The position numbers and the translations under genes were made by a program. A DNA stretch of 64,000 nt, taken from Verrucomicrobiales bacterium (GTDB lineage Bacteria > Verrucomicrobiota > Verrucomicrobiia > Limisphaerales > J093). The stretch covers positions 3,732 through 67,731 of the forward strand of contig JABTUJ010000042.1 of assembly GCA_015075445.1 (NCBI GenBank), given 5' to 3'. The notes beneath the pieces are model-generated. The model was not told the origin of the DNA, did not search any database, and was given only the letters and a program-made list of their open reading frames with translations. Below are positions 17,507 through 31,317 of this stretch, piece by piece (position 1 is the stretch's first letter; each line of letters begins with the position of its first letter).

Positions 17507-18277
17507 ATGGGAATCGAGGCCCCCCGCCCGCCCATCCTCCTCCGCATGCACTTGCGTTGGATCAGGCAGTTTGCCGGCTGGACGATCAGCCTCGCCTGCG
17601 CGGGCCTTCCCTTGGCCGGCGCCGCAGCCAAACCGGTTCTCCCCTCCGGCTACCGGCTGTTGTACGAGCAGACCTTCGCGGACGCGACGGCCCTCCGCGA
17701 CTTCCAATTCAGCGATCCCCTGGCCTGGCGCCACTCGACGGCGCTGGGCCGGGGAGCCCTGGAACTGCATCGCCAGAGCCAGTACACCCCGCGTGTGCGT
17801 TCCCCGGTCAACCTGGCCCTGATCGCGGACCGCTGGTTTGGCGATTTCATCCTCGAAGTGGACCTGGTCCAAACCGGACGCGAGTACGGCCACCGTGACA
17901 TGTGCGTGTTTTTCGGGGCCAAGGACCCGGCCAACTTCTACTACGTGCACCTCGCCACCAAGGCGGACGATCACGCCCATAACGTCTTCCTCGTGAACGA
18001 CGCGCCCCGGGTGAAGATCGCCCAGCGAACCACCGACGGCGTCCAGTGGGGACTCGAGGTCTGGCATCGGGTCCGTCTTGAACGCACCCTGGCGGATGGC
18101 TCGATCAAGGTCTTCTTCAACGACCTCACCGAACCGATCATGGTCGCCACGGACCAGCACTTCGACTATGGCCTGATCGGCTTCGGATCGTTCGACGACA
18201 CCGGCATGGTCGCGAACGTTCGCGTCTGGGGCCCGGACTTCGCGCCCGTTCGTACCGGGTTCTTTCTTTCCCCGTAG
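17507..18277 (+). CDS. LamG/DUF1080-like secreted protein
   Basis: The ATG abuts the upstream stop. FGDFILEVDLVQTGREYGHRDMCVFFGAKD...HRVRLERTLADGSIKVFFND...GFGSFDDTGMVANVRVWG. The start could alternatively be 17546. Confidence 0.6.
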   Translation: MGIEAPRPPILLRMHLRWIRQFAGWTISLACAGLPLAGAAAKPVLPSGYRLLYEQTFADATALRDFQFSDPLAWRHSTALGRGALELHRQSQYTPRVRSPVNLALIADRWFGDFILEVDLVQTGREYGHRDMCVFFGAKDPANFYYVHLATKADDHAHNVFLVNDAPRVKIAQRTTDGVQWGLEVWHRVRLERTLADGSIKVFFNDLTEPIMVATDQHFDYGLIGFGSFDDTGMVANVRVWGPDFAPVRTGFFLSP

Positions 18278-18378
18278 GAGCCGACGTCAGGAGGCTCTGG
18301 CTGCCGGGCTGAGTCTCGTCACCTCGCCTCCTACCGGGGGCCGCCTGCCGGGCTGAGTCTCGTCACCTCGACTCCTAC
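18274..18378. repeat. Composite REP-like element (GTAGGAGCCGACGTCAGGAGG plus 2 x CTGCCGGGCTGAGTCTCGTCACCTCGMCTCCTAC)
   Basis: Direct duplication at 18301-18334 and 18346-18378. The GTAGGAG ... CTCCTAC ends are complementary. The element overlaps the TAG stop of the upstream gene. Confidence 0.85.
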
Positions 18379-29421: not shown

Positions 29422-31317
29422 CTACGACCCTCCGCTGGCGGGGGCAACCACTTGCACGATCCGTCCCCGAAACGCGGCCAGGGCCGCGGCGATTTCCGGG
29501 TCATCCTTGAAGCTGGCCGGGTCGAGCTTGGTCAACCGGGCCGGCGTGGCCTTGGCGGGCCCCGCTGGCGCGGCCGACGCACTGGCAGCATCCGCCGGGA
29601 CCTTGGCGGGTGGCGGCGACCCCGCCGCGGCGTCCGAGGAAGCGGTTGCTGACGTGGGAGCCGCCGGAGCACTGACCGCGGCCGGAGCCGCGGCCGGGGG
29701 CGTATCGGTGGCCGCCGGAGGGTCGCGCTTCACGAACTTCACCTGGGGATCCGTGATGCCGGCCTGTTTCATCACTTCGACGATGAGGGCGCGGTTGCGC
29801 GCGTTGTCCACCAGGGAGAGTGGCGTCTCGGAGGCCCGCGGGAAACCGATGGTCAACAGGCTGCGCTCGAGCGAAACCGGAAAGGCCTTGCGCAGGTAGT
29901 TTCGCAGGAATGGACTGGCCGCCACCCCTTCGACCAGAGCCGACCAAAGCGCTGTGAGCTCGGAGGGCACGACCGGTGGCGCTGCACCCTCCCCGCAAGA
30001 GTCGAGGTCACGAGACTCCACCTTCCCACCCGCCCCACCTCCCCCGTAGGAGTCGAGGTCACGAGACTCCACCGCGCCACCAACCCTCCCCGGAGGAACC
30101 GCCCCGGCGGCTCGACCGTGTCCAGCACTACCGGCAGCGGTTTCAGCCACGGTTTCCACCCCCGGCGCGGGACCGGCTTCGTCACGGAGCGCCTTCAGCC
30201 GTGTCAGCACCGCGTCAAGACTGACCGCCTGGCGCATCTGAAGGGCGCGCAACAGAGCGACCTCGAGCGCGATCTTCTTCGAGACGGCATCGCGCCAGCC
30301 CGACTCGGTCTCGGTGAGCACCTCCATGATGCGGGTGACAGCGTCGGTCGGAAGCAGACCGGCCTGCTGTGCCAACGCCTCGGCCTCGGCCTCGGAAACC
30401 TCGATCAATTGGCGGTCCCCGCGCGTCACCTGCCAGATCAGCAGGTTGCGGAAATGGTTCAGGAGATCGGACAAAAGGCGGCCGAGGTCCTTGCCGTTGC
30501 GGGCCAGTTCATCGAGTTCGGCCAGGACCCGCTCGGGCACGCCGGCGAGCAGGGCGTCGGCCAGGGCGAGGATCTGGGCGCGGGCGGCCAACCCGAACAT
30601 CGAGAGCACATCGGCCTCGGTGATCTCGCGGCCACAGAAGCTGATCAGTTGGTCGAGCGTCGATTCGGCGTCGCGCATCCCGCCGTCGGCGCCACGGGCG
30701 ATGGCGTGGAGGGCGGCGTCGTCCACGGTCACGCCCTCCTGTTGGGCGATGCCGGTGAGGTGCTGGACGATCAGCGCGGCCGGGATGCGGCGGAGATCGA
30801 AGCGCTGACAGCGGGAGAGGATGGTGGGCAGGACCTTCTCGGGGTCGGTGGTGGCGAACATGAACTTCACGTGCGCCGGCGGTTCCTCGAGGGTCTTGAG
30901 CAGCGCGTTGAACGCCGCCGCCGTCAACATGTGCACCTCGTCGATGATGTAGATCTTGAACCGGGAAGAGGCGGGTGCGAACCGGCACGTCTCGCGCAGT
31001 TCGCGGACCTGCTCGACACCGTTGTTGCTGGCCCCGTCGATCTCGAGCACATCCAGCGACCGGCCCTCGGCGATCTCGACACAGCGCGGGTCAGCGACGT
31101 CGAAGTCGGCCTGGGGCCCGCCGGTGCAGTTCAGGGCCTTGGCGAAGATGCGCGCGATGGTGGTCTTGCCGGTGCCCCGCGGCCCACAGAACAGGTAGGC
31201 GTGGGCGATGCGGTTCTGGTCGATGGCATTGGCCAGCGTGCGGGTCACATGCTCCTGACCCACCACCTCCGCGAAGCGTTGCGGGCGATACTTGCGCGCG
31301 ATGACCTGGTAGCTCAT
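29422..31317 (-). CDS. dnaX: DNA polymerase III subunit gamma/tau
   Basis: MSYQVIARKYRPQRFAEVVGQEHV...FCGPRGTGKTT...KIYIIDEVHMLT...SRCQRFDL. ATG at 31317. The 1131-aa ORF in the track is an artefactual upstream extension. Confidence 0.9.
   Translation of the reverse strand: MSYQVIARKYRPQRFAEVVGQEHVTRTLANAIDQNRIAHAYLFCGPRGTGKTTIARIFAKALNCTGGPQADFDVADPRCVEIAEGRSLDVLEIDGASNNGVEQVRELRETCRFAPASSRFKIYIIDEVHMLTAAAFNALLKTLEEPPAHVKFMFATTDPEKVLPTILSRCQRFDLRRIPAALIVQHLTGIAQQEGVTVDDAALHAIARGADGGMRDAESTLDQLISFCGREITEADVLSMFGLAARAQILALADALLAGVPERVLAELDELARNGKDLGRLLSDLLNHFRNLLIWQVTRGDRQLIEVSEAEAEALAQQAGLLPTDAVTRIMEVLTETESGWRDAVSKKIALEVALLRALQMRQAVSLDAVLTRLKALRDEAGPAPGVETVAETAAGSAGHGRAAGAVPPGRVGGAVESRDLDSYGGGGAGGKVESRDLDSCGEGAAPPVVPSELTALWSALVEGVAASPFLRNYLRKAFPVSLERSLLTIGFPRASETPLSLVDNARNRALIVEVMKQAGITDPQVKFVKRDPPAATDTPPAAAPAAVSAPAAPTSATASSDAAAGSPPPAKVPADAASASAAPAGPAKATPARLTKLDPASFKDDPEIAAALAAFRGRIVQVVAPASGGS

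Follow-up and report, generated by a model that had tools for sequence, protein, structure and literature searches.

The GTAG- and CGTC-tagged superfamilies of REPs were defined by Di Nocera, De Gregorio and Rocco (2013, BMC Genomics 14:522; PMC3733652), who also reported REPs lying wholly inside open reading frames (ORFs); over half of these were dimers or grouped units, which encode 20–30 aa. Many of these intragenic REPs lie in DNA synthesis and repair genes, the largest number was found in the verrucomicrobium Opitutus terrae, and the list includes the ASPIC/UnbV protein Oter_0490; the inserts were proposed to be neutral because of their location in flexible linkers (PMC3733652). Neither the text of that paper nor its Additional file 3 names dnaX. 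Two further systems invite comparison: the Rickettsia palindromic elements, one of which lies in the essential dnaE gene of R. conorii (refs 13, 14 of PMC3733652), and the REPIN/RAYT system (Bertels and Rainey, 2011; PMC3116915).

Here we describe a pair of REP units translated within dnaX of a soil Verrucomicrobium, in whose genome the same repeat is present hundreds of times between genes. The case is a new example, in a new gene and a new lineage, of the phenomenon known from PMC3733652; through it dnaX joins the genes with translated REPs, in a Verrucomicrobiota lineage new to the list, and it opens no new mechanism. The window (the whole stretch of DNA that was analysed, 64,000 nt) belongs to a genome of 8.2 Mb with 67% G+C, assembled in 100 contigs at 87% completeness. 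The features discussed below, in window coordinates, are:

29422–31317, minus strand: dnaX, encoding the DNA polymerase III tau/gamma subunit, an ORF of 631 aa with start MSYQVIARKYRPQRF
30046–30069, minus strand: REP unit 1 (in gene order), reading on the plus strand as GTAG plus GAGTCGAGGTCACGAGACTC and encoding ESRDLDSY, aa 417–424
29995–30018, minus strand: REP unit 2 (in gene order), with an identical core, encoding ESRDLDSC, aa 434–441
29980–30081, minus strand: insert-like segment of 34 codons, made up of two tandem 51-nt units, in a predicted disordered linker
18274–18297, plus strand: intergenic partner arm B, GTAGGAGCCGACGTCAGGAGGCTC
18311–18334, plus strand: intergenic A arm, GAGTCTCGTCACCTCGCCTCCTAC
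18355–18378, plus strand: second intergenic A arm, GAGTCTCGTCACCTCGACTCCTAC, an extra 44-nt unit missing at the orthologous site of the sister species (G007)

The first-pass annotation of this DNA had reported a 24-mer occurring twice in dnaX, 51 nt apart. We found exact matches to GAGTCGAGGTCACGAGACTCCACC on the plus strand at 29999–30022 and 30050–30073, 51 nt from start to start, where none are expected by chance (0 in 100 shuffles); the pair and its spacing therefore held, while the coordinates originally given had been off by 1–3 nt. Repeat finding in the window delimited two tandem units, 29980–30030 and 30031–30081, that share 82% identity overall and 100% identity in the core, each unit consisting of the core and a spacer whose coding strand is rich in G. 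Read in the dnaX frame on the minus strand, the 24-mer pair encodes VESRDLDSYGGGGAGGKVESRDLDSC (aa 416–441), and the peptide VESRDLDSYGGGGAGGKVESRDLDSCG is the in-frame product of the repeat; ESRDLDSYGGGGAGGK is likewise a peptide stretch of DnaX, and aa 416–443 read GAV-ESRDLDSY-GGGGAGGKV-ESRDLDSC-GEG. Translation of this frame thus agreed with the duplicated VESRDLDS(Y/C)G that had been described in the linker. The intergenic element that had been placed at 18310–18378 also exists, as copies at 18311–18334 and 18355–18378, and unit 1, whose minus-strand reading is GAGTCTCGTGACCTCGACTCCTAC, agrees with the copy at 18355–18378 at 23 of 24 positions, as had been claimed. A search of the genome for further copies returned a single full-length dnaX, which is the sole copy in the assembly. 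Its ORF is unbroken across the insert and is flanked on both sides, in the same frame, by conserved DnaX domains, which bears out the proposal that the repeat had entered coding sequence without breaking the frame.

Across the whole genome, the 20-nt core has 235 matches with at most 3 mismatches, and 187 of these are exact to one of two variants: GAGTCTCGTCACCTCGACTC accounts for 140 and the GTGACC variant, the one in dnaX, for 47. REP unit 1 of dnaX is identical to this genomic variant including the CTAC/GTAG tag; in unit 2 the tag has decayed from GTAG to GCAA (plus strand). A partner arm, B, lies about 10 nt upstream of the A arm in inverted orientation, and many short arrays occur as well. 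With B arms counted at ≤4 mismatches, the genome holds approximately 233 A and 493 B arms (726 in total) in 315 clusters. An arm consists of GTAG, a further G, and a 5–6-bp stem (GAG[T/C]C/G[A/G]CTC) enclosing a 10-nt loop, and the complementary stem combinations are the frequent ones, with 206 T/A and 74 C/G pairs versus 4–26 for each other combination. The tag, present as CTAC after the A arm and as GTAG heading the B arm, was seen in nearly all listed copies. A single arm folds weakly (−9.4 kcal/mol, z = −0.41), and the B+A composite at 18274–18334 of the window forms a long imperfect hairpin (−40.4 kcal/mol, z = −3.46). Neighbouring arms keep preferred distances: the 59 B+A+ pairs are mostly 28–40 nt apart (preferably about 34–36 nt) and the 86 B+B− inverted pairs mostly 44–49 nt apart (preferably 46–47 nt).

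With its short stem-loop, its GTAG end, its high copy number and mainly extragenic location, and its frequent inverted dimers, the family has the hallmarks of REPs, and the dnaX unit is a member of a GTAG-tagged REP family with BIME/REPIN-like dimers. These results support the first-pass interpretation of the dnaX repeats, with two refinements: the element is a GTAG-tagged REP unit that is usually paired with a second arm, and events of this kind had been documented before (PMC3733652). A large composite palindrome of the same subtype as the dnaX insert lies in a non-coding region, C14:109573–109916, where four A units face three on the other strand, with periods of 45–51 nt and G-rich spacers.

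We scored the position of each cluster relative to genes using a codon log-odds model trained on 869 long, high-GC3 ORFs of the same genome. A cluster was taken as coding if a stop-free frame spanned it and the sequence on both sides was coding-like, and scoring covered the clusters lying about 40 codons or more from a gene end. Three clusters scored above 0.1, namely dnaX, C57:23747–23861 and one on C17, and seven further ones scored above −0.1. We rejected the C17 cluster as an in-gene REP, since it is a 3-mismatch match without the tag and can be put down to chance; candidates on C12, C2, C24, C28, C29 and C31 and at C57:180199 proved to be antisense shadow ORFs or to lie upstream of the real start. 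By the codon model and manual inspection together, 2 of the 315 clusters are clearly gene-internal. The genome search is thus in keeping with the earlier description of a repeat family that otherwise lies between genes, as only dnaX and one other gene are clearly spanned.

That other gene encodes a 903-aa FG-GAP protein, in which the array at C57:23747–23861, with three units of 45 nt that each combine GTAGGAGCCGAGGTCACGAGGCTC with a C-rich spacer, is translated in frame as VGAEVTRLTLPPPPP three times over, between the UnbV_ASPIC domain (aa 551–611) and the TPR region (from aa 697). Its unit has the same loop as the dnaX unit, differs from it in the stem, where a compensatory change turns T-A into C-G, and is read from the opposite strand. 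The case parallels Oter_0490 (PMC3733652). FG-GAP/ASPIC-TPR orthologues in three other genomes (G002, G003 and G006) showed no REP array in the linker; in G005, which is of the same genus, the same linker carries an inverted pair of B-type REPs in frame in two gene copies (positions 1585–1697 of loci L120 and L124). The periods of both coding arrays are divisible by three (51 nt in dnaX and 45 nt in the FG-GAP gene), whereas in intergenic arrays the periods of all 57 direct A-A neighbour pairs are distributed without bias (20/14/23 for period mod 3), and this is the pattern that selection against frame-breaking alleles would leave. Some intergenic arrays of the same subtype also have periods of 45, 48 or 51 nt, and the unbiased survey led us to reject a hidden coding constraint in them.

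Compared with the intragenic GTAG REPs of PMC3733652, the family described here is alike in consisting of high-copy, GTAG-tagged stem-loops that lie mainly outside genes and frequently form inverted dimers, and differs in its sequence, GTAGGAG[T/C]CGA.., and in that we found no REPtron/RAYT for it. The likeness to REPIN/RAYT (PMC3116915) lies in the inverted two-arm hairpins elsewhere in the genome, in the homogeneity of the sequence (187 of 235 cores exact) and in its conservation at orthologous sites between species. The dnaX insert itself, unlike a REPIN, comprises two direct copies of one arm and thus forms no inverted pair, and no cognate RAYT flanked by the arms was found. As with the Rickettsia palindromic elements (refs 13, 14 of PMC3733652), the insertion is in frame, the host ORF keeps its conserved domains, the gene stays functional and the peptide falls outside the folded core. 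The rickettsial elements come from an alphaproteobacterial endosymbiont, are of CGTC or other types, and are intragenic in a large share of cases, whereas here the unit measures 24 nt, the phylum is another one, and 2 of 315 clusters are intragenic. RPE-1 elements are also much longer than the unit found here.

In DnaX, Pfam places DNA_pol3_delta2 at aa 20–177, the ATPase lid at aa 183–229 and DNA_pol3_gamma3 at aa 232–364, so that domain III ends at aa 364. In an AlphaFold model built on a 14-sequence alignment, aa 383–449 have pLDDT <50 and no secondary structure, and this stretch is preceded by confident domain III helices and followed by a confident C-terminal fold (aa 452–530). The model thereby predicts that the insert sits in a disordered linker. 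The GTGACC variant is open in 4 of 6 frames, the frame used by dnaX is free of stops, and the period there is 17 codons. We suggest that the insert persists because the linker is without constraint on length or sequence, the period is a multiple of three, and no stop is introduced.

Each of the 40 relatives searched has a DnaX. We aligned 13 of these orthologues, which represent the genus, family and order of this species, with the DnaX of the window: domains I–III and the C-terminal domain are conserved, and the region around aa 380–450 is a hypervariable Pro/Ala-rich linker, too variable for a precise empty site to be reconstructed from this alignment. ESRDLDS occurs in none of these 13 orthologues, which is the outcome that the first-pass annotation had looked for in such a comparison. 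The sister species G007, of the same genus, is close to the window's genome (G000), with 96% identity over DnaX aa 1–311 and approximately 90% DNA identity over 3.9 kb, and both cores occur at the corresponding place in its dnaX, between flanks that are homologous too. The cores are 44 nt apart there versus 51 nt in the window, and the second unit is followed by an additional 22 nt. This dnaX, the only one in G007 (C34:199273–201180), is spread over three frames: the frame changes close to aa 311 and within G-runs of the linker, and there is one TGA. These frame changes are probably assembly indels, and the insert may be in frame there too.

Counted at ≤1 mismatch, A-arm copies number 216 in the window's genome and 166 in G007, against 0 in 8 other genomes of the same genus and 4–5 in two other genera. 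The presence of both units in G007, the only other family-rich genome, argues that the insertion predates the split of the two species, and we would date it to their common ancestor, alongside the expansion of the family. An essential replication protein would then have tolerated 34 repeat-derived codons in a disordered linker since before the species split. Between the two species, the dnaX cores are identical at 40 of 40 positions, versus 82/120 in the upstream flank, 19/31 in the spacer and 62/100 in the downstream flank (61–68%). A purely neutral passenger would not leave this pattern, and homogenisation or selection across the family is needed to account for it. The orthologous intergenic arms are equally conserved (24/24 for B and 23/24 for A), and we therefore take the conservation of the core to be a property of the family, arising from homogenisation or selection, and not specific to dnaX. 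The loop centre differs between orthologous intergenic copies (window 18301–18378 compared with G007), being GTCAC in one and GTGAC in the other, and both variants are common genome-wide.

The dnaX insert is very probably an ancestral REP-arm pair that is translated and tolerated in a disordered linker. We propose that one unit, together with a G/C-rich spacer, entered the linker DNA between the clamp-loader module (domains I–III) and the C-terminal domain, in the common ancestor of this species and one sister species, and that a 51-nt tandem duplication following this one insertion produced the two 17-codon units, whose translation is ESRDLDS(Y/C) and a Gly-rich spacer. We favour a single insertion with tandem duplication because a like gain is seen at the orthologous intergenic site: at window 18250–18378 the counterpart in G007 has B+A only, and the window has one extra 44-nt A unit, indicating that arrays grow by tandem duplication. 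The two units could alternatively stem from independent insertions or from recurrent re-insertion into a preferred slot. The dnaX spacers are approximately 60–80% alike while the cores are identical, as separate arrivals might leave them, and the FG-GAP/ASPIC-TPR linker, with three direct units in the window's genome versus a B-type inverted pair in G005, suggests that a linker can be used repeatedly. However, intergenic arrays of the same subtype likewise combine identical cores with variable spacers, and tandem gain of a 44-nt unit is seen directly at window 18301–18378, so we consider separate insertions unlikely. A repeat-induced chimera or mis-join is conceivable in a metagenome-assembled genome of 100 contigs and 87% completeness, but the frame is continuous, conserved DnaX sequence continues in that frame on both sides, and the two cores recur, in the same place and with homologous flanks, in the independently assembled genome of the sister species; that the dnaX repeats are an assembly artefact is extremely improbable.

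The insert is probably without a function of its own. E. coli gamma is made by frameshifting at the domain III/C-terminal junction of dnaX. The insert lies exactly at this junction, the −1 frame meets a TGA inside each unit, and the identity of the cores (40/40) stands out against flanking linker DNA at 61–68%, all of which could speak for exaptation, with the cores kept for a DNA or RNA role, for example in protein binding, in pausing or processing, or in yielding a shorter, gamma-like product. We nevertheless regard exaptation as very unlikely, given that core conservation is just as strong at the orthologous intergenic site, that the sole X_XXY_YYZ heptamer of the coding sequence lies past the insert, at aa 491, and that the 99-nt mRNA segment folds worse than its shuffles (z = +1.86). 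There was no slippery heptamer near aa 360–450, no homopolymer run (≥6 A/T or ≥7 G/C) near the linker, and no terminator-like site. Together with the unstable fold, these results speak against a frameshift or gamma-producing signal and leave a role in making a gamma-like product without support. A broader proposal is that dnaX and a few other interdomain linkers are recurrent, non-random REP slots whose cores are held canonical by family homogenisation, through gene conversion or a trans-acting Y1 enzyme at the replication fork, which would link REP biology with replication genes. Its starting points are the contrast between cores and flanks in dnaX, the differing REP types in the ASPIC-TPR linker and the excess of replication and repair genes among intragenic REPs (PMC3733652), and we see it as a long shot.

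Under the preferred reading, a tolerated insertion followed by tandem duplication, a RAYT-type Y1 transposase working on hairpins of single-stranded DNA presumably mobilised the unit. PF01797 (Y1 transposase) had 15 hits in the window's genome and 14 in G007, in assemblies that are 87% and 80% complete, respectively, so that a cognate gene may be missing from them, and no A or B arm lies within 1.5–3 kb of any of these Y1/RAYT genes. With no PF01797 gene in either genome flanked by A or B arms, we rejected all of them as the cognate RAYT of the A/B family. Most of the PF01797 genes are flanked by their own inverted, GGGGTCA-headed REPs, with 19–75 genomic copies per family, and a different GTAG palindrome flanks the gene at C22:19306–19647. 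About ten RAYT-like genes have REP families of their own (C79:88988, C41:37396, C27:29810, C6:23800, C41:57038, C25:79483, C24:295488, C24:147998 and others), and some ten separate RAYT/REP systems are an unusually large number for one genome.

For annotation, translated REPs carry a warning, as they give false protein similarity between DnaX and intergenic arrays. The intergenic A-arm array at C13:256802–256933 produced a spurious tblastn match to DnaX aa 397–443, with 61% identity and with stops in the matched sequence.
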